Source: Clostridia bacterium (GTDB lineage Bacteria > Bacillota > Clostridia > Oscillospirales > Acutalibacteraceae). Taken from it: a DNA stretch of 64,000 nt. Below are positions 2,831-12,659 of the stretch, one piece after another. The position numbers were made by a program, and so were the translations under genes. A model generated the notes under the pieces. The model saw nothing but the letters and a program-made list of their open reading frames with translations, did not search any database and had not been told where the DNA came from. How positions within the stretch are numbered: the stretch's first letter is position 1; the number at the start of each line of letters is the position of its first letter. The stretch is taken from NCBI GenBank assembly GCA_017543285.1, contig JAFYGK010000012.1, positions 1 to 64,000 on the forward strand. Direction: 5' to 3'.

Positions 2831-2901
2831 AATCACAACAGTAAAGGGCTTTGCACCTTCTATTGCGGTATATCTCATGTAATATTCAAGGAGAGATGAA
2901 A

Positions 2902-3348
2902 ATGAAAAAGCTCATATCCGTTCTGCTGCCGGTTTTTTTGATTATGTGCCTTATATCAGGCTGCGGCTATAATTACCGCGAGAGCTTCAAGCGCTTTGAC
3001 GTTGCGGTGACCCTTGATACGCCCGATGACATCTACGCCGTGACCTGCGATTATTCCCTTGACGGCAAATCGTTGGGCTTACAGGGCGCGTCAAATGCCG
3101 ACGAAACGAAGATTACCGACGGGGTTTATTTCGAATTTGACGAAAAAAATTTTGAAGATAACCCAGAGCTTGGCGAGCTTTCGCTGTCATTCGGCCTGTA
3201 CGACCGCCTGCGCCAGAGTCTGGACGAGGAGGAGCGCGTAATACCGGTCGACGGAGAAATAAAGATCGAAGCGCAGTACGGCAGGGAATATCGCGTCACG
3301 ATAAGCGGCGACAAGCAAAGCGGCTTTCGGGCGGTTCTCGCCGGATAG
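2902..3348 (+). CDS. Hypothetical lipoprotein
   Basis: Start chosen at the ATG 7 nt downstream of RBS aaggagag. Signal peptide with lipobox (LIMCLISGCGY). No recognisable domain. Confidence 0.5.
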   Translation: MKKLISVLLPVFLIMCLISGCGYNYRESFKRFDVAVTLDTPDDIYAVTCDYSLDGKSLGLQGASNADETKITDGVYFEFDEKNFEDNPELGELSLSFGLYDRLRQSLDEEERVIPVDGEIKIEAQYGREYRVTISGDKQSGFRAVLAG

Positions 3349-3727
3349 CGGCCCGAAAATCCCGGTCACCGTTTAAGGATTCTTTGCGCAAACGATCCTT
3401 GAGCGCGCTTTTCACCCGGCGGGATCTTTCCCGGAGCCGTCACATCGGGGCTTGCCGTATTTGTCTGCAGTGGTATCACGGCGGCACACAGCGCTGAAAA
3501 ACCCTTCATGTCTGCCGCGACGCTTATTCATATCAGCGCGCCGCACCACGACTATATCTCATCCGCTTTATATACGGCCGGCCTGAACCCTCATTGAAGC
3601 CGGCGCCTGTCTTCGCCGCGATCTTTCCGGGGATATTTCATCGTCCGGATATGTGTATATCCCGCATCAGACCGGGCGTAAAGAAGCTCAACGGCAAAAT
3701 GCAGGCGAGCTGACTCAAAAAGGTATT

Positions 3728-3764
3728 ATCCCCGCGCTACGCAAAACCGGCGCGGGGATTTTTG
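3728..3764 (+). terminator. Rho-independent terminator-like hairpin (atccccgcgc...gcgcggggat + TTTT)
   Basis: A 10 bp GC-rich stem followed by a T-run. It has no upstream ORF on the + strand and lies in a 560 bp ORF-free region. Confidence 0.4.
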
Positions 3765-3808
3765 CCGATATACCGGCTGATCAAGCGGAAGAATAAAGGC
3801 GCCTATCA

Positions 3809-3839
3809 AAAAAACAGCAGACGAAAGTCTGCTGTTTTT
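3809..3839. terminator. Bidirectional Rho-independent terminator (A-run / stem gtctgctgtt / T-run)
   Basis: aaaaacagcagac-gaaa-gtctgctgttttt. It sits immediately downstream of the minus-strand PASTA gene stop at 3909. Confidence 0.55.
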
Positions 3840-3908
3840 AAATACAAGCATAAACCGCTCAGGCGGTTTTAATATGTGCATGCCGCAAAAGGAGCTTTCC
3901 CCGGCCTT

Positions 3909-5693
3909 CTATTCTTCGGCAGTCGGGCTTGTTTCCGGCGGAGTTTCAGAGGAAGGTTCGGGCTGCTGCGATGACGGAGGCTGCTGCGACGATGACGACG
4001 GCTGCTGAGAGGAGGAAACCGGCTTTTCATATGTGCTGACTGTCAGCGTAACATGTGTGCCGTATTCATATTCTCTGCCAGCGGTCAGATCCGAACCAAT
4101 GACCTCGCCGTAATTGCCCTGCGCGGCGTCTTCCTCGATAACAACGACAAAGCCGAGCTGCGACAGGGTCGCTGCCGCCTGATAGGCCTTTTTGCCGACC
4201 ACCTTGGGCATCTCTCTCATCCTGGGTCCGAGCGAGACCTTGATATGCACCGTTTCGCCCTCCTCGATGAGAGTGCCCGGCGAGGGAGTCGTCTCAACGA
4301 CCCTGCCCTCGTCAAAGGTATCGCTGAAAACATATCCGTCAAATACAAACCGCATGTATGCCCATTGCATATTGTCGGTCAGGTCGCTGTAATTGACGCC
4401 CATAATATCATACGGAACGGCAAAATTGAATTCGGGGGCGCTTTCGGATGAGGACTCCGGCTCGCTTGACAATTCCGACGACATTTCAATGGAGACCGGC
4501 TCGACCGACGACGGATTTTCTCTTGAGCGCCCGCCGAGGACGACTGCAAGCACAGCTATTGCGATGAGCAGCAGCAGACCGAGAACCCCGCAGGCTATAT
4601 ACAGACCGATATTGCTTTTTCTTCCGACCGGCGATTCATCGTAGTAGTCCTGTTCCTCCTCGACCATTCTTCTGCGCGCCGATTCTCTGTCCAATTGGGC
4701 CTGTTCCTTTTCATATTCCTTGACGACGCCGTTCACCGCCGTAGAGGAAGTAAGCTCCTGCTTGAACACATCCACCGAGTTTGTTCTCATTTCGGGGTGT
4801 ACCTTTAAAGCTTTGTTGAGCGCCGAGAGAACGTTCGGAGGAAGCTGGGAGCTGACCTCAAGCGGGAAATTTAAGGTCTCGTTGTTCATGCGCTGCAAAA
4901 CGTCCGGCAGGACGGTTCCCGTCAGCGCGGTATATATAGTCGAAGCAAGGCCGTATACGTCGGTATGATGTCCGAGCCTTCCGTCCGAGCGGTATTGTTC
5001 AAGCGCGGAATAACCGTCGAATATCTGCGGATTGAGGTATGTTCCCGAGCTGTTGGCGGCCTCAATGGAAAAGTTGGTCAGGCGGAGCTTGCCAGAAGCG
5101 TCGAGTATGAGATTGTCGGGATTTACCGCATAGTGGTTTATCCCGGCGGCGTGAAGCGCGGCGAGTCCGTTGATCACCGGTACGAACAGAGTGCGCACCT
5201 GCTTCCATTCGAGCGGTCTGGAATGGCGCTCGAGAGCCTCGGAGAGGGTGCAGCCGTCGACAAGCTCGCCGACACAGTAGACGGTGCCGTTTGTCTCAAA
5301 TATATCGTAAATGGGAACAAGCATGGGAATATCGCGCAGCTTTGCGAGCATTCTTGCCATGCCGATAAAATCCTTGTAGTATTCGTAAAAGGCTGTTTCG
5401 CATCCGTTGATTATTCTCAGGCTGTTGTCGCCGGTATTTCTTGCGGAAATATTTACGGGGAAAAACTCTCTGATCTGCACGGGAGCGTTCATCTTGTTGT
5501 CCCAGCCGGAATAAGAGGCGCCGTCGCCGTTCGCGAGCAGCAGGCAGCCGACGGTATATCTTTCCTGGATACCGGTGCCTACAGGCAAAAAAGGCTCGGG
5601 ATTCTGCTGCGGGGTATATCCGCAGTGGGGGCACTGGGAAAAGCCTTCGTCAGGCTTCATGCATCTCGCGCATAAATTGTTAGGTATAGACAT
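3909..5693 (-). CDS. Ser/Thr kinase-like pseudokinase with N-terminal zinc ribbon, one TM helix and two extracellular PASTA domains
   Basis: N-terminal CxxC...CxxC. The kinase fold is recognisable but the catalytic residues are replaced (VAIK becomes VQIR, HRDLKPxN becomes HYAVNPDN, DFG becomes NFS). A TM helix (LYIACGVLGLLLLIAIAVLAVVL) follows, then two PASTA-like repeats and a Q/P/S-rich tail. Confidence 0.65.
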   Translation of the reverse strand: MSIPNNLCARCMKPDEGFSQCPHCGYTPQQNPEPFLPVGTGIQERYTVGCLLLANGDGASYSGWDNKMNAPVQIREFFPVNISARNTGDNSLRIINGCETAFYEYYKDFIGMARMLAKLRDIPMLVPIYDIFETNGTVYCVGELVDGCTLSEALERHSRPLEWKQVRTLFVPVINGLAALHAAGINHYAVNPDNLILDASGKLRLTNFSIEAANSSGTYLNPQIFDGYSALEQYRSDGRLGHHTDVYGLASTIYTALTGTVLPDVLQRMNNETLNFPLEVSSQLPPNVLSALNKALKVHPEMRTNSVDVFKQELTSSTAVNGVVKEYEKEQAQLDRESARRRMVEEEQDYYDESPVGRKSNIGLYIACGVLGLLLLIAIAVLAVVLGGRSRENPSSVEPVSIEMSSELSSEPESSSESAPEFNFAVPYDIMGVNYSDLTDNMQWAYMRFVFDGYVFSDTFDEGRVVETTPSPGTLIEEGETVHIKVSLGPRMREMPKVVGKKAYQAAATLSQLGFVVVIEEDAAQGNYGEVIGSDLTAGREYEYGTHVTLTVSTYEKPVSSSQQPSSSSQQPPSSQQPEPSSETPPETSPTAEE

Positions 5694-5964
5694 TTATATC
5701 TGCCTCCGTTTAGCTTTCGGATCGGATTTATACTTATCTGCCGCAGAGAAAAAAGCGGGCGGCAAATCTGCATTTTTACATAAATACCCACGATATAATA
5801 ATCCTTTATATATTTTAACAGACTTTCAGTCAAAAAGCAATACATATTTACCGACGGGTAAATCAATGCGGTATACGTCCGATTGACAACCGGCATTTTG
5901 CGTGATAAAATCAAATCGGGTCGTTTTTCGACCCGGACATTTTTACCGAAAGGAAGCTCGCCGC

Positions 5965-6609
5965 GTGAAAAAACTGCTTTGTGTTCTGCTTGCCGCCGCC
6001 GTTGCGCTGTCGCTTCTTTGCTGCGGCAGATACGATAATTCATCCGACCAGAATATTTATGTGCCCGACCAGGGAACTTCAAACGAATTAAAGCTCATCG
6101 AGGATTCATCCGCGCCCGACCGGTCGGAAAAACCGTCCTCCCCGAGCGGCAGGGCGGAAAAAGGCAGCAGCCAAAGCCCGCAGAAAAGTGAAGGCGGCAG
6201 CCCGGATTCCGAACCGCAGAGCAGCAATGCCTCGTCCGAACCGCAGGGCGGCAGGAAGACGCTCGATAAAAACGGAACATATACAAGCCGCGACGATGTA
6301 GCGCTGTATATCCGCCTTTACAACACTCTTCCCGAAAACTTTATCACCAAAAGGGAGGCCGAAGCGCTCGGCTGGACCGGCGGCAGTCTCGAGCCTTATG
6401 CCCCGGGAAAATGTATAGGAGGCGGACGCTTCGGCAACTATGAGGGAGCGCTGCCCGATAAAAAAGGGCGCAAATACTGGGAGTGCGACATTGACACGCT
6501 GGGCAGGAAAAGCCGCGGAGCAAAGCGCATAGTTTATTCCAATGACGGGCTTATCTATTATACCGGAGACCATTACAAAACCTTTACGCTGCTGTACGGG
6601 GAGGAATAG
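5965..6609 (+). CDS. Secreted barnase-family guanyl-specific ribonuclease, lipoprotein with S/P-rich linker
   Basis: The C-terminal ~110 aa align with barnase (LPENFITKREAEALGW; APGKCIGGGRFGNYEGALP; RIVYSNDGLIYYTGDHYKTF). The catalytic Glu, Arg and His are conserved. GTG start 8 nt after RBS aaaggaag, followed by a lipobox (ALSLLCCG). Confidence 0.75.
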   Translation: MKKLLCVLLAAAVALSLLCCGRYDNSSDQNIYVPDQGTSNELKLIEDSSAPDRSEKPSSPSGRAEKGSSQSPQKSEGGSPDSEPQSSNASSEPQGGRKTLDKNGTYTSRDDVALYIRLYNTLPENFITKREAEALGWTGGSLEPYAPGKCIGGGRFGNYEGALPDKKGRKYWECDIDTLGRKSRGAKRIVYSNDGLIYYTGDHYKTFTLLYGEE

Positions 6610-6612
6610 AAA

Positions 6613-6891
6613 ATGAAAAAGGTTGTGCTCGACGGAGCCGTTCTGACAAATATGGAGGATGTTCATGAGTTTCTCGCACGCGAATTGTTTTTTCCCGAGT
6701 GGTACGGCAAAAATCTCGACGCCCTTCATGACTGCCTGACCGACATACATGAGGACGTCAGGATTGTTTTCATAAAGAAAAAGCAAATGAAGCAGAGGCT
6801 GGGCGGATATTATCCCAGGCTGGTCAGGGTTTTCAGGGACAGCAGCGAGGAAAACCCGCATATAAAATTCAGCCGCAGAAACGAAATGTGA
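6613..6891 (+). CDS. Barstar-family ribonuclease inhibitor
   Basis: 92 aa ORF 3 nt downstream of the RNase gene. It matches barstar over the binding helix (FPEWYGKNLDALHDCLTD), including the equivalents of Asp35 and Asp39. Confidence 0.8.
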   Translation: MKKVVLDGAVLTNMEDVHEFLARELFFPEWYGKNLDALHDCLTDIHEDVRIVFIKKKQMKQRLGGYYPRLVRVFRDSSEENPHIKFSRRNEM

Positions 6892-7742: not shown

Positions 7743-8261
7743 TTATGCCCAGGGATCGAGTTCTGCGGGCAGGCGAATATCGGGCAGCAGGAAGTTTTCC
7801 CACAAGAACCATTGGTTTCCCTTTCGGCGCAGCTTGACCTGGCGCTCGGTATCGGCTCCCGACGAGCGGATATACAGTGTCGCATAGCCCTCGTTCTGAT
7901 AGGAGTAGGGATTGTCGAATACCGTCACGGTATAAGGCAGCGAAGGCTCATAATTATTCTGCGGACCGGTTCCGGCGAAATAGGAGCGGGCCACATACAT
8001 TTTTCCTCTCAGCCTGTCCCTGATGAACTGCTGCTCAAACGGGGACAACGGCTGCGGACCCTTGAGGAAGTTGAGCATATTGAATGTTTCCTGCGGATCG
8101 TTTTCGTAATTGCAAAGCACCGCGACGGTCAGAGCCGCCGTCATAAAGGGGGTTGAAAGCGAGGCCTCGGGTACGGATCTCAGCTCGTCAACGGTTTTGG
8201 GCAGTGAGGAAAAAGAAAAAGTATATGTGTTTGGCATTTTTTCTCCTTTGCAGGCAGACAT
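7743..8261 (-). CDS. Hypothetical cytoplasmic protein, last gene of the zinc-ribbon operon
   Basis: 172 aa ORF whose start overlaps the stop of the upstream gene by 1 nt. No recognisable domain. Confidence 0.4.
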   Translation of the reverse strand: MSACKGEKMPNTYTFSFSSLPKTVDELRSVPEASLSTPFMTAALTVAVLCNYENDPQETFNMLNFLKGPQPLSPFEQQFIRDRLRGKMYVARSYFAGTGPQNNYEPSLPYTVTVFDNPYSYQNEGYATLYIRSSGADTERQVKLRRKGNQWFLWENFLLPDIRLPAELDPWA

Positions 8262-8827
8262 TACCGTCCGGGGCCGTTTGGTCTCGGCGGCTGCATGTTT
8301 TGGGGAAGCATCATCCTGTCGACGCTTTTGTTCATGAATGCGTCTGCCTTTTCAATAAGGTTCAGACTTCCGTGTACGGAATATTTTTCCGCGGTGGTCT
8401 GCGCGTGTACGGTTTTCATTTTGGACGACATGACCGACGTCGCAATCAGAGCGACAAGAAGCCCTATGCCGAGAGAAATCACGATGGCGAGAGCAAAATT
8501 GAAGGGGCGTTTTTCCGTTTTTGCATTCAGATCGTAAATCTGACCGTAATCAAAGATTTCGGCATTGATGTCGTCGGTTTCGCCGGCATCGTTTTCGTCA
8601 AAATAAAGCTCATAAATCTGGTTGTAGTCATATCCGTCCGCGTTGTAGTCCTCGCCGATGATCTGATCAAGCTGATCTTCGCTTATCGAGCCGTCCTCTC
8701 CGATTTGGGAGAGCATTTCCATAAGCTGCTCATAGCTGATCTCTTTGTTTCCCTCCTGAGCCGACACGGCAAAAGCGAGCGACAGGCACAGGCAGAGCGC
8801 CAGAAGGACGCAAATCAGTTTTTTCAT
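8261..8827 (-). CDS. Secreted acidic (D/E/Y-rich) protein with C-terminal TM anchor
   Basis: Signal peptide (LLALCLCLSLAFAVSA), an acidic low-complexity ectodomain, a TM helix (FALAIVISLGIGLLVALIA), and a short cytoplasmic tail. Confidence 0.45.
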   Translation of the reverse strand: MKKLICVLLALCLCLSLAFAVSAQEGNKEISYEQLMEMLSQIGEDGSISEDQLDQIIGEDYNADGYDYNQIYELYFDENDAGETDDINAEIFDYGQIYDLNAKTEKRPFNFALAIVISLGIGLLVALIATSVMSSKMKTVHAQTTAEKYSVHGSLNLIEKADAFMNKSVDRMMLPQNMQPPRPNGPGR

Positions 8828-8842
8828 ATTGCCCGCACCTCC

Positions 8843-9922
8843 TTAAAGCAGCCAGAACAGATAGGACAGAGCAAAAACGGCAGCGCCGACGATTGAGGCT
8901 AGACCGAGGAACCATTTCCAGTAGGCTCCCTTGTCGGTCGGCAGATCGCCTACGAATTTTCCTGTCTGGCCGTTCATGGCGAAGGTATATTTCTGTCCGT
9001 TCCATGTTGTGTTCAGCAGCCACACCGGATAGAGGGCATAGCTTGCTCTGGCGTTGTTTAGAGAGATCATGCTCTGCTGTGGCATAACGGCGTTATAGCC
9101 CTGCACAGTCTGGGCAAAGACCTGCTCGGTGGTGCGCTTTATTCTTTCATTGGCGCGCTCGATGCTTTGTTCGGCCGTCACGTCATATTTGTCGGCGAGA
9201 TAGCCTGCCAGATATGCCGTTTGAAAATCGACCGCCTCACTGAAATTATACGGCTCGAGCGATTCCATAAGGGTATCGTCCATTTTTGAAGAGCCGTCCA
9301 CCGGCACGCGCTCAAATCCGAGGGTTCCCCCTCTGATTATATCGTAGAAGTTTGTTTCGGTATAGCTGAATTTACCGTCTGTCCATGTGCGGATCTTAGT
9401 TCCTTTGTAGAACATTCGGGCGTTGGCCTCGGCGGTAAACAGCCAGAACGGGACATATATGCCCTTTATTTCGTCGATGTGGTTTTGATCCCTGAATATT
9501 TTGGGCAGAAGACGTTTGCCTTGCATGTGCTGCATGAGGCCCTTTTTTGCGGCTTCCTTGTCCAGCTTGAAGGGGATTATATAATCGGGCTTCAGCGTGC
9601 CGGAAAACTGCCCCATCATAACGATTGGATTGCCGCAGTAAGGGCATGACGTTGCCGCGAGGCTCTGGTCGCCTATTATTTCGCCGCCGCACGATTTGCA
9701 GACATAGACCCTCATGCCCTCGGTTTCACCCTCCTGCCATTCGGCGCCGGAGGTGTCCCACTGCATATTGTCGCCCTGGGGGGCATCGAGAGCCTCGTCG
9801 AGCTTTTCCAGCTCGCTCATTTCATACTGCGACTCGCAGAAGGGGCATTTCATCTTCTGCAGCCCGCTGTCGAATTCCAGAGCGCCGCCGCAGCTCGGGC
9901 ATTTGTATTCCTGCAATGCCAT
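8843..9922 (-). CDS. Double zinc-ribbon protein with C-terminal TM helix
   Basis: Two CPxCG...CPxC(E/G) ribbon pairs near the N-terminus, a ~200 aa unknown domain, and a C-terminal TM helix (WFLGLASIVGAAVFALSYLFWLL). Confidence 0.6.
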   Translation of the reverse strand: MALQEYKCPSCGGALEFDSGLQKMKCPFCESQYEMSELEKLDEALDAPQGDNMQWDTSGAEWQEGETEGMRVYVCKSCGGEIIGDQSLAATSCPYCGNPIVMMGQFSGTLKPDYIIPFKLDKEAAKKGLMQHMQGKRLLPKIFRDQNHIDEIKGIYVPFWLFTAEANARMFYKGTKIRTWTDGKFSYTETNFYDIIRGGTLGFERVPVDGSSKMDDTLMESLEPYNFSEAVDFQTAYLAGYLADKYDVTAEQSIERANERIKRTTEQVFAQTVQGYNAVMPQQSMISLNNARASYALYPVWLLNTTWNGQKYTFAMNGQTGKFVGDLPTDKGAYWKWFLGLASIVGAAVFALSYLFWLL

Positions 9923-10013
9923 TGTTTTTTATCAGCTCCTTTTCTTGGAGGGGATGGTGGGCTTAAGGAAAAAGGTCGGGCTTGAAGCCGTCGAGCCGCC
10001 GAAGGCGGCTTTT

Positions 10014-11150
10014 TCAGCTTCTCGGTGTTCCGCAGCTCTGGCAGAACTTTGTGTTGTTCACGGCGCCGCAGCTCGGACAGGTCCACGGACCGTCCTGCTG
10101 GACGGGAGAGGTAAACTGCTGCTGACCGGGAGTCTGCTGATACTGCTGCTGAAACCCCTGAGGCTGATTGAATCCGCCGCCCTGATTGAAGCCCTGTTGG
10201 GGATAGCCCTGGTTAAAGCCCTGCTGCTGACCGGGGGCTTGCTGATACTGCTGCTGAAACCCCTGAGGCTGATTGAATCCGCCGCCCTGATTGAAGCCCT
10301 GTTGGGGATAGCCCTGGTTAAAGCCCTGCTGCTGACCGGGGGCTTGCTGATACTGCTGCTGGAAGCCCTGCTGAGGGTAGCCCTGATTCATGTTCACAGG
10401 CTGGCCGTAATTTTGCTGGAAGCCCTGTTGGGGATAGCCCTGATTCATGTTTACAGGCTGAGAGAAGCCCATTGCGCCCTGCTGAAAGCCGGGCTGATTA
10501 AAACCGGGCTGCTGAAAGCCGGGCTGATAGCCGAAGCTCTGTTGTACGCCGCAGGCGCCGGGCATAAGAGCGGCCCTGATGGTCTCGCCCTGTCTTTGCA
10601 GTTCTGAATAGAGAAAGTCGTACTGGCTCTTCGGACGGTTGGAAAAGCTGCTCAGCTCAAACTTTATTTCATTGAACCACGGCGAATTTACATAGATCAC
10701 CGTTTCAAACTCGTAGCTGTATTCATAACGTCTGGGATTGAAGCTGGTATTTTTGCCGTCGGGAGATTTGTAGAATATCTCGGTTTTATGTTCCTCTATC
10801 CTGGTCTCGCATCCTGTGACCTGAGAAATATCAATGATATCGGGGTTCTTTTTGCGCCAGTCGGATGAGGAAGACACGATGAATTTCCCCTGCTGCTGGT
10901 CGATATAAACCTTCGTAGAATTGCCGAGGGTCATGGTCGGATGAAAAGAATTAAGGTTTTGCTCGTTTTGTTCTCTGTAGGCCAGCTGCTGTTTAATCTC
11001 CTCAAGCGTAGACCTTTTTCTGTCGCTGAAAAAAGGCGACAGCTTGCCTGCACAGTTTTTGCAGATATTGCCGTCCTCCAGCTTGCGGTTGCCGAGAAGT
11101 CCGATTTTTTCTCCGCATATATCGCAGAATTTTTTCTCAAATAAAGCCAT
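10014..11150 (-). CDS. DUF4428-like zinc-ribbon protein with Q/G/F/N-rich prion-like repeat domain and C-terminal zinc ribbon
   Basis: N-terminal CDICGEK...CKNC, a ~150 aa Q/N/G/F/Y low-complexity region made of tandem repeats, and a C-terminal WTCPSCGAVNNTKFCQSCG. Confidence 0.6.
   Translation of the reverse strand: MALFEKKFCDICGEKIGLLGNRKLEDGNICKNCAGKLSPFFSDRKRSTLEEIKQQLAYREQNEQNLNSFHPTMTLGNSTKVYIDQQQGKFIVSSSSDWRKKNPDIIDISQVTGCETRIEEHKTEIFYKSPDGKNTSFNPRRYEYSYEFETVIYVNSPWFNEIKFELSSFSNRPKSQYDFLYSELQRQGETIRAALMPGACGVQQSFGYQPGFQQPGFNQPGFQQGAMGFSQPVNMNQGYPQQGFQQNYGQPVNMNQGYPQQGFQQQYQQAPGQQQGFNQGYPQQGFNQGGGFNQPQGFQQQYQQAPGQQQGFNQGYPQQGFNQGGGFNQPQGFQQQYQQTPGQQQFTSPVQQDGPWTCPSCGAVNNTKFCQSCGTPRS
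10145..10470. repeat. In-frame tandem repeats (102 nt x2 plus partial, and a further ~42 nt x2) encoding the Q/G/F/N-rich domain
   Basis: The 34 aa unit QQYQQAPGQQQGFNQGYPQQGFNQGGGFNQPQGF occurs twice exactly at the nucleotide level. QPVNMNQGYPQQGFQQ also occurs twice. Confidence 0.6.
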
Positions 11151-11241
11151 GGTTTTTCTCCTTTGATCGGGGTCTGCATTTTAAAAAGCCTTATGCCGCA
11201 ATCGGCCGGCATTAAAATGCCGGCCGAAAGCTGATTGCCTG

Positions 11242-12591
11242 TTATTTCCGAATATCGTTGTCGTCGAATATATCGCCGCACTCGGGGCAGAATTTGGGAG
11301 GATTCTTGGGGTCTGCGGGCTCCCATCCGCATTTGTCGCACTTATAGAGAGGCGCTCCTGCGGGTTTCGGAGATCCGCACTCGGGGCAGAATTTGCCCTT
11401 GTTGACGGCGCCGCACTTTGTGCATGTCCAGCCTGCCGGGTCTGCCGGCTTGGGCGATCCGCAGTCGGGGCAGAATTTGCCTGTTGCCGTCGCGCCGCAC
11501 TTTGCGCATGTCCAGCCGTTTGCTGCCGGAGCCGCCGGAGCCGCCGGAGCCGTCTGCTGCTGCGCCGCCTGCTGAGCCTGCTGCTGCTGACCGATCGCGA
11601 ACAGATTCTGAGTGTTCATTCCGCCTGCGTTCATAGCCATACCCATACCCATGAAGCCGGCCATCGCGCCGCCTGTGTTGGAAGCCGCGGCGCCCATTGC
11701 GTCGGCCTGAGCTCCGGCGATTGTTGCAGCCGCCATTGTCGGATCTTTGAGCATTGCCGCGCGCTGTGCCTTCTTGATAAGCTCGGCGTCCTCCTCGGGC
11801 AGCGTGACCGAGCCGAGAGCGACCGATACGACCTTCAGGCCTCTTGTCTCTCCCCATTTCTGGGAAAGAGCTTCATTCATGGCGTTTTCAAGGTCGGTAT
11901 TGTGGGAAACTATCTGATTGGGACGCAGCTCAAGATCGGACAGCTTGCCGAATGCCGGCTGCAGAGCGCTGATAAATTCCGTCTTGAGCTGGCCGTCGAG
12001 GGTTTCTCTGCGGTATTCCTCGGTGACGTTGCCGCATACGTTTGTGTAGAAAAGAAGCGGATCGGCTATCCTGTAGGAATAGACGCCGGAGCAGCGAATG
12101 GATACGTCTATGTCAAGACCTATCTTGGAGTCGACGACTCTGAAGGGAACGGGATTTGCCGTGCCGAATTTGTTGTCAAGCAGCTCCTTGGTGTTGAAAT
12201 AGTAAACGCGCTGGTCCTTTCCGGTGTCGCCGCCGTATGTAAAGCGCTTGCCGATGAGCTTGAAGGTCTCCTTGATGCTTTGACCGAGATTGCCTGTGAA
12301 GATACTGGGCTCGGTCGAGCTGTTCCAGGTAAACTGTCCGGGCTCGGCACAGACCTCGACGATCTTGCCCTGCTCGACGATGATCATGCACTGACCGTCG
12401 GCAACGGCGATGCCGGAACCGTTGGAGATGATGTTGTCGTTGCCCTTTGTGTTGGAGGAACGACCGGTGATCTGCTTTTTGCCCCTGACCATCATTACGT
12501 CGTTGGGGATTGCTTCGCAATAGAAAAATTCCTTCCACTGGTCGGCGAGAACACCGCCGACGGCGCCTAAGCCGGCTTTAATAAGTCCCAT
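11242..12591 (-). CDS. SPFH/band-7 domain protein with three C-terminal zinc ribbons (COG4260-like)
   Basis: SPFH-like N-terminal domain, an A/Q/M-rich linker, then WTCAKCG...CPDCG, WTCTKCG...CPECG and CDKCG...CPECG. Start at the ATG 8 nt downstream of RBS aaaggag. Confidence 0.65.
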   Translation of the reverse strand: MGLIKAGLGAVGGVLADQWKEFFYCEAIPNDVMMVRGKKQITGRSSNTKGNDNIISNGSGIAVADGQCMIIVEQGKIVEVCAEPGQFTWNSSTEPSIFTGNLGQSIKETFKLIGKRFTYGGDTGKDQRVYYFNTKELLDNKFGTANPVPFRVVDSKIGLDIDVSIRCSGVYSYRIADPLLFYTNVCGNVTEEYRRETLDGQLKTEFISALQPAFGKLSDLELRPNQIVSHNTDLENAMNEALSQKWGETRGLKVVSVALGSVTLPEEDAELIKKAQRAAMLKDPTMAAATIAGAQADAMGAAASNTGGAMAGFMGMGMAMNAGGMNTQNLFAIGQQQQAQQAAQQQTAPAAPAAPAANGWTCAKCGATATGKFCPDCGSPKPADPAGWTCTKCGAVNKGKFCPECGSPKPAGAPLYKCDKCGWEPADPKNPPKFCPECGDIFDDNDIRK

Positions 12592-12659
12592 AAAATTTTC
12601 TCCTTTCAAGGGAATGATTTTGTTTTGGAAATATATTTTACAGAGCTGTTCCTCTGTTT

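Follow-up and report, generated by a model that had tools for sequence, protein, structure and literature searches.

A gene at positions 3909–5693 on the minus strand of a 64,000-nucleotide stretch of Clostridia bacterium DNA (here the window; Acutalibacteraceae, assembly GCA_017543285.1, contig JAFYGK010000012.1, positions 1 to 64,000) encodes a PASTA-domain membrane protein whose cytoplasmic kinase domain has lost its catalytic residues. It belongs to a conserved pseudokinase family in which these residues are lost while the fold and an intact open reading frame (ORF) are kept across divergent species. The ORF starts with ATG and has 594 codons plus a stop; it is a real gene with a 594-residue product, and the identical protein occurs on 6 independent metagenome contigs.

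The solved structure closest to the kinase domain is that of PpkA (5hnv, E=3e-20, residues 52–312), not PknB. In the HMMER alignment to 5hnv, VQI-R75-EFFP lies opposite IAIKEYMP, N-H187-Y-A189-VNPDN opposite LHRDISLDN and T-N207-F-S209 opposite LDFG. Because this alignment is in register, the exchanges of the VAIK Lys for Arg, of HRD for HYA and of DFG for NFS within a Hanks fold, which an earlier note on this DNA had read from the letters alone, are all real; re-translation agreed. Thus the query carries Arg75, Met112, Ala189 and Asn207 at active-kinase determinants together with a loop, LANGDGASY, in which the glycines at 53 and 55 are gone. Only Asn194 of the catalytic loop is retained among these sites, and the HRD His187 is also kept.

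The same losses were seen when 106 members of the pseudokinase clade described below were compared column by column with 66 active zinc-ribbon sister kinases. The Gly-loop residues G53, G55 and F57, present in 100% of the active sisters, are lost in the clade. Position 75 of strand beta3 is Lys in 100% of the sisters and Arg in 87% of the clade, while alphaC position 112, Glu in 100% of the sisters, is Leu, His, Tyr or Met in the clade. More generally, the sisters show no variation at Ala73, Lys75, Glu112 and the position aligned to Met142, all of which are relaxed in the clade. The same relaxation is seen at sites that hardly vary, if at all, in the sisters: Arg188, Asp189, Asn194, Asp207, Gly209 and the activation-segment residues Lys225 and Pro230. 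A catalytic Lys or Asp merely shifted in position, as in an ordinary active kinase, had been named earlier as the alternative to a pseudokinase. It is ruled out: no new conserved Lys, Asp or Glu was found anywhere in the kinase domain, and the pseudokinase call stands. With every catalytic and canonical ATP-binding determinant gone, the protein is a pseudokinase, not an active Hanks kinase. Its cytoplasmic domain is a Hanks-type fold with the HRD His, APE Glu, alphaF Asp and subdomain-XI Arg as anchors, and all four are retained in 104/104 family members of 500–760 residues, the set in which motifs were scored.

A word-indexed search returned about 30 full-length relatives at 28–54% identity, which public sources label merely 'PASTA domain-containing protein'. 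We then relied on an exhaustive profile search over 1.84 billion representatives (50% identity), from which the best 150 matches were listed. All 150 have E below 1e-159 and 77 are pseudokinases of 500–760 residues, so the gene is not a decaying pseudogene; family size and conservation likewise rule out a recent one. At least 106 divergent short dead relatives (530–760 residues) were collected in total, and full-length ORFs were placed at 40 distinct genome loci. The carriers, by organism name, are Oscillospirales: Oscillospiraceae, Ruminococcaceae, Acutalibacteraceae, Pygmaiobacter and the cultured Clostridium methylpentosum DSM 5476. Within this order the family is single-copy and widely conserved.

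Motif scoring of the 104 members gave a consistent picture. The four ribbon cysteines (CCCC) are present in 94/104 and the last CxxC in 104/104. The beta3 Lys is Arg in 90/104 and Lys in 6/104; the HRD Asp is lost in 103/104 (Gly 84, Ala 16, Ser 3, Asp 1) and the DFG Asp in 90/104, all three catalytic residues being lost in 86/104. The HRD site thus reads H-x-G/A in the clade and the DFG site G/N-F-S/C/A, and Asn194 is Thr in 52% of members. The clade has also acquired constraints of its own: Trp163 (92%, 0% in active sisters) and Arg167 (80%, 3% in active sisters), Arg75 (87%), Arg214 (82%), Ala230 (91%), Pro285 (96%), a one-residue insertion at 158 and a clade-specific Arg204. That such constraints arose implies a new function. 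At 214 the query departs from the clade-typical Arg and carries Asn.

In a neighbour-joining tree of 195 sequences, built on kinase-domain columns with canonical PASTA kinases as the outgroup and saturated distances capped, the short dead proteins, 106 in all, formed one exclusive clade (precision and recall 1.0), recovered in 27/30 bootstraps with agreement within two tips. The dead-kinase clade has a single ancient origin and long-term conservation. Accordingly, the gene is neither a one-off case nor an isolated oddity, but one member of a large monophyletic family. The early-branching members P0029, P0030 and P0037 retain the Lys, the HRD Asp being already gone, and the sister lineage P0057 and P0066 is half-degenerate (IQEY, HGR, DFG kept). 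These Lys-retaining early branches and this half-degenerate sister point to one ancient inactivation followed by stepwise loss, and suggest that this decay went on under continued selection.

The N-terminal CxxC...CxxC ribbon motif noted earlier is present; its supposed gain by the dead protein did not hold. The same ribbon is found in 51 longer relatives (more than 760 residues, multi-PASTA; CCCC in 37/51, last CxxC in 47/51) that keep the Lys in 47, the HRD Asp in 50 and the DFG Asp in 48. Since it is common to the active sister kinases, the ribbon is ancestral, not gained. The kinase domain belongs to this PpkA-like zinc-ribbon lineage, named 'IKEY' here, which is separate from the canonical PASTA kinases. 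A paralogue of PrkC/StkP, as first supposed, is not supported: the score to NCBIfam NF033483 (PknB_PASTA_kin) is 146.1 bits against an equivalog cutoff of 450, the nearest structure is PpkA, and a canonical PASTA kinase in the same match list, P0063, lies in a separate operon (priA-def-fmt-rsmB-rlmN-PP2C-kinase-rsgA). A decayed PrkC/PknB copy is ruled out on the same three counts.

The active zinc-ribbon 'IKEY' kinases (Ruminococcus, Oscillospiraceae, Lachnospiraceae) bear varied C-terminal sensors (PASTA, leucine-rich repeats, solute-binding, RCC1, MORN) and often form tandem arrays of 2–4 paralogues differing in these sensors (loci L058, L061, L062, L065-L067, L070, L071, L077, L078, L081, L089-L091). 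Short degenerate copies lie inside some arrays, for example L065 6964–7971 and L090 4239–5231. Among the 150 best matches, 21 are non-kinase multi-PASTA proteins from the same taxa. Giant proteins of 1,100–3,300 residues with 15–31 PASTA-like repeats and no kinase domain top the profile search (P0074-P0079, P0082, P0083, P0088 and others).

The features of the window gene and its product are as follows.

3909–5693, minus strand: whole gene, 594 codons with the stop at 3909–3911; coordinates re-translated.
5703–5707, minus strand: Shine-Dalgarno sequence GGAGG, 9 nt 5′ of the ATG.
5622–5672, minus strand: C4 zinc ribbon C8-x2-C11-x9-C21-x2-C24 at the cytoplasmic N-terminus; a motif, from which metal binding is presumed.
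4746–5576, minus strand: pseudokinase domain, residues 40–316, a complete Hanks fold on profile, structure-match and model evidence.
5511–5537, minus strand: degenerate Gly-rich loop LANGDGASY (GxGGFGxTY in active sisters), by column comparison.
5469–5471, minus strand: Arg75 at the beta3 (VAIK) Lys site, by alignment.
5358–5360, minus strand: Met112 at the alphaC Glu site, by alignment.
5193–5207, minus strand: Trp163...Arg167, a conserved, clade-specific patch where helix E begins, by column comparison (model helix 163–182).
5127–5135, minus strand: HYA at the HRD site, catalytic Asp gone, by alignment and re-translation.
5067–5075, minus strand: NFS at the DFG site, metal-binding Asp gone, by alignment and re-translation.
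4650–4742, minus strand: charged juxtamembrane helix, residues 318–348, modelled with a predicted local distance difference test score (pLDDT) of 72–92.
4527–4610, minus strand: single transmembrane helix, residues 362–389 (model helix 362–387), the sole hydrophobic segment, Kyte-Doolittle maximum 3.13.
4233–4433, minus strand: PASTA-like unit 1, residues 421–487, presumed extracellular, from Pfam, a model with pLDDT above 90 and the S. aureus Stk1 PASTA structure 3py9.
4032–4220, minus strand: PASTA unit 2, residues 492–554, from the model and the best Pfam stretch (494–554, profile positions 2–64 of 64).
3912–4031, minus strand: disordered Ser/Pro/Gln-rich C-terminal tail, residues 555–594, pLDDT below 50.

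Pfam recognised the protein kinase domain (PF00069, E=9e-18, residues 114–312) and PASTA (PF03793, E=1.6e-18) in two stretches, at 66.8 bits against a gathering cutoff of 23.2. Both PASTA units are modelled confidently in the predicted structure, and 3py9 aligns to residues 455–541. One transmembrane helix and two PASTA repeats, as first described, are therefore supported by Pfam, by hydrophobicity and by the model. For the ribbon, residues 11–40 are modelled at pLDDT 94–97; its profile signal was limited to a weak TFS_arch match (E=0.16), with no Pfam ribbon model at E≤1.

We examined the gene surroundings in the window and at the family loci. The window copy stands alone, with a lipoprotein-like gene downstream and convergent (2851–3348, plus strand). 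Upstream and on the opposite strand lie a barnase-type secreted ribonuclease gene (PF00545, with an N-terminal signal/low-complexity region; 5902–6609, plus strand) and, 4 nt after it, a barstar inhibitor gene (6613–6891, plus strand). No second kinase, PP2C or PASTA gene was found within the 64-kb window. Similarly, no PP2C gene adjoins the pseudokinase gene in the window or at the 40 family loci, where the PP2C/rsgA operon is absent, and across these loci neighbours vary, with no conserved function-giving operon for the window's lineage. At 4/40 loci, abhydrolase, Mur ligase and Ddl genes lie downstream.

A different arrangement was found in one large subclade, which excludes the window's lineage. 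At 16/40 loci a DnaC/DnaI-like AAA+ ATPase gene (NCBIfam PRK06835, 269.6 bits against a cutoff of 215) lies directly upstream on the same strand, and at 12 loci this gene is in turn preceded by a DnaD-domain gene; the loci with these upstream genes are among L006, L012, L018-L020, L022-L024, L027, L029, L031, L032, L035, L038, L039, L044 and L056. Gaps at these junctions are as short as 17–56 bp, and the pseudokinase gene is probably co-transcribed with the DnaD-domain and DnaC/DnaI-like genes in that subclade. The linked members are mutually 37–91% identical (median 46%), which indicates that the linkage is old.

Further upstream in the window, five same-strand genes rich in zinc ribbons occupy 7743–12609 (minus strand): an SPFH/Band_7_1 protein whose C-terminus carries a double zinc ribbon (11242–12609), a DUF4428 protein that combines a long repeat region rich in Gln, Gly and Phe with a ribbon at the C-terminus (10014–11150), a multi-zinc-ribbon membrane protein (8843–9922), a 188-residue membrane protein (8261–8827) and a DUF6935 protein (7743–8261). 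A Band_7_1 gene is also found upstream of the pseudokinase gene in L011, so that loose synteny with the window is possible. The 560 bp between the convergent lipoprotein-like and pseudokinase genes (3349–3908) contain no ORF of at least 80 residues; no consensus terminator was seen on either strand over 3300–3908, and scans of the window gave no Rfam or tRNA match.

Taken together, the protein is probably a non-catalytic transmembrane scaffold or allosteric partner that ties protein binding in the cytoplasm to a cue related to peptidoglycan. The earlier note had proposed a scaffold or decoy, reasonably enough for a catalytically dead receptor architecture. As to what the receptor binds, which proteins it works with and which way the signal runs, we infer the following. 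The two extracellular PASTA units would bind a peptidoglycan-derived ligand or nascent cell wall and so localise the protein to sites of wall synthesis. One transmembrane helix and the charged juxtamembrane helix would join them to the cytoplasmic zinc-ribbon/pseudokinase module, in which canonical ATP binding and phosphate transfer are not expected. Instead, the preserved kinase fold and its newly conserved surface (Trp163, Arg167, Arg214, Arg75) would recruit or modulate cytoplasmic proteins, the likely partner being either an active Hanks kinase module, which is the likeliest, or the phosphatase or substrates of such a kinase.

A scaffold is favoured because the 40 loci lack a PP2C gene, whereas the canonical PASTA kinase gene adjoins PP2C and RsgA genes. 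It is also favoured because P0066, the nearest degenerate lineage, which has PASTA, sits among live kinases, FHA and PP2C genes. Its locus (L097; DXYM01000008.1, GCA_019415835.1, 1–14818) reads FHA, VWA-FHA, FHA, PP2C, kinase, P0066, kinase-PASTA, FHA, kinase-PASTA, so that P0066 has three further kinase genes around it, two of which include PASTA; the array may be a naturally occurring case in which a dead kinase works together with its live paralogues. Three points weigh against the scaffold. No partner was identified, and the window copy's neighbours are uninformative (barnase/barstar, lipoprotein-like gene). The equivalent of PknB Leu33, which we take, also from the L33D/E entries, to be a back-to-back dimer contact, was located through the ungapped register D30/D65 to K40/K75. 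Leu occupies it in 88% of active sisters and in only 24% of the clade, so that N-lobe pairing of the PknB type is not obviously retained. Finally, conservation of Arg75 might reflect an anionic ligand that the protein still binds; the same has been proposed for DYD and DLHK pseudokinases (PMC12599244).

This last point leads to a related but unlikely explanation, in which the Arg75-remodelled pocket, with the other clade-specific arginines, binds a nucleotide or anion and switches conformation without catalysis. The exchange of Lys for Arg in 87% of members is not random drift, Arg167, Arg214 and Arg204 are likewise clade-specific, and ATP has been modelled in Lys-to-Arg DYD pseudokinases and Arg-lined pockets described in DLHK (PMC12599244). 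Yet the Gly-loop glycines, Ala73, the alphaC Glu and the DFG Asp are gone, the catalytic-loop Asn is lost in half of the clade, and the query has Asn instead of Arg at 214. The loss of the Gly loop and alphaC Glu, and the Thr that replaces Asn194 in 52% of members, speak against an atypical active enzyme, which would use non-canonical residues as in WNK or CASK or, as in SidJ or SelO, turn the kinase fold to a different chemistry. Misannotated pseudokinases do have precedent (PMC12599244) and the query retains His187 and Asn194; with no compensating conserved Lys, Asp or Glu in the clade and no PP2C partner, we hold such an enzyme very unlikely. The protein might work from the outside, as a decoy or structural wall protein whose PASTA pair and tail compete for or organise peptidoglycan ligands above a cytoplasmic domain serving as a stable anchor. 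PASTA unit 2 spans the full Pfam profile, S487, G489 and L510 are invariant in the clade alignment A1, and the 21 non-kinase multi-PASTA proteins among the top 150 matches come from the same taxa. A mere anchor would not keep the ribbon, however, and the cytoplasmic part is conserved no less than the PASTA part (18/21 invariant A1 columns are cytoplasmic) and has gained new constraints, which makes this role quite unlikely.

Two further explanations draw on neighbouring genes. An anti-phage or toxin-linked component, either a kinase like those of PD-T4-6 or MADS or a partner of the adjacent barnase/barstar pair, was suggested by PADLOC PD-T4-6 and mad6 models matching at 50–92 bits, by NCBIfam MADS6 at 85.7 bits and by the pair directly upstream. 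But the MADS6 score is far below the NCBIfam cutoff of 460 and these scores reflect generic kinase similarity, one PD-T4-6 model even aligning to the PASTA region; PADLOC gave no match for the neighbours, and barnase/barstar is absent at the other 39 family loci. A single-copy family widespread in Oscillospirales and often placed after dnaD/dnaI-like housekeeping genes is hardly a defence gene, and we regard such a role as extremely unlikely. Identity with the PD-T4-6 or MADS6 kinases themselves is ruled out by the score below cutoff and the lack of defence neighbours. Because the gene immediately follows DnaD-domain and DnaC/DnaI-like loader genes in the large subclade, one may also imagine an unrecognised class of non-catalytic PASTA receptor coupling cell-wall status to the start of chromosome replication or the wider cell cycle. 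The pseudokinase/zinc-ribbon module would then tether or gate the helicase loader at the membrane without phosphorylation; we give this conjecture a small chance of being right.

We compared the protein with known systems. The active zinc-ribbon 'IKEY' sisters share the N-terminal CxxC...CPxCG ribbon, the I-[KR]-E-[YF]-x-P beta3 motif, the ...EQY end of the activation segment, a transmembrane helix, often PASTA repeats, and a kinase domain nearest PpkA (PDB 5hnv/5x1r). They differ in keeping Lys, HRD, DFG, Gly loop and alphaC Glu, and in their 800–1700 residues with many PASTA or other repeats, often in tandem, whereas the window protein is solitary with two PASTA units. PknB, PrkC, StkP and Stk1 (NF033483; 'KAPD' of the bacterial serine/threonine kinase (bSTK) atlas) likewise combine a cytoplasmic Hanks domain, one transmembrane helix and extracellular PASTA; they are of another kinase lineage (25–28% identity), lack the zinc ribbon, are active and lie in a PP2C-kinase-rsgA operon. 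The closest precedent and best functional analogy is CD2148 of C. difficile, a septal transmembrane kinase without the catalytic Asp and Asn, which shows no autophosphorylation but modulates the phosphorylation of CwlA that depends on PrkC (PMC9674922). It too is a membrane-anchored Hanks-fold protein of Clostridia with catalytic residues lost, but has no PASTA domains; the comparison covers the kinase fold.

A 2025 atlas, which covers about 300,000 bacterial Ser/Thr kinases, and its companion review (PMC12599244) list seven pseudokinase families, ActPs1, ActPs2, ActPs3, GLW, CP1, DYD and DLHK; they link PASTA solely to the canonical KAPD family, mention no zinc ribbon and contain no family like the present one. 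The M. tuberculosis MviN/MurJ pseudokinase (ActPs3) and EssB/YukC are, like the window protein, membrane-linked scaffolds with all three motifs degraded (PMC12599244), but belong to other lineages, phyla and partners (flippase fusion or T7SSb) and have neither PASTA nor zinc ribbon. DYD pseudokinases are membrane-associated, occur in Firmicutes and Actinobacteria, have Arg for the beta3 Lys and lack the alphaC Glu (PMC12599244); they keep HRD and replace DFG by DYD, where the window protein has HYA and NFS. Membership in DYD is ruled out by the family's loss of the HRD Asp and by its DFG-site motif. By their published descriptions, GLW (GLW in place of HRD), ActPs1-3 (Actinobacteria-specific), CP1 (COG3899 fusion) and DLHK (proteobacterial) are also set apart, since motifs, taxa and architectures do not fit. 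Full-text searches for PASTA together with pseudokinases brought up no description of such a protein. Bacterial membrane pseudokinases and PASTA receptors are thus each known, and their conserved combination is, as far as could be checked, undescribed.

It is mainly through PASTA kinases that Gram-positive bacteria report cell-wall status to the cytoplasm; these kinases influence division, germination and beta-lactam tolerance. A conserved PASTA sensor joined to a dead kinase would mean that a cell-wall signal can also pass without phosphorylation. Such non-catalytic receptor signalling is known for plant and animal receptor pseudokinases and, to our knowledge, barely documented in bacteria. 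Arg75, Trp163, Arg167 and the C4 ribbon are defined experimental targets, and the active, half-dead and dead kinases form a natural series for tracing how a pseudokinase emerges. The family in which this may be followed occurs widely in Oscillospirales, an order of abundant gut anaerobes.

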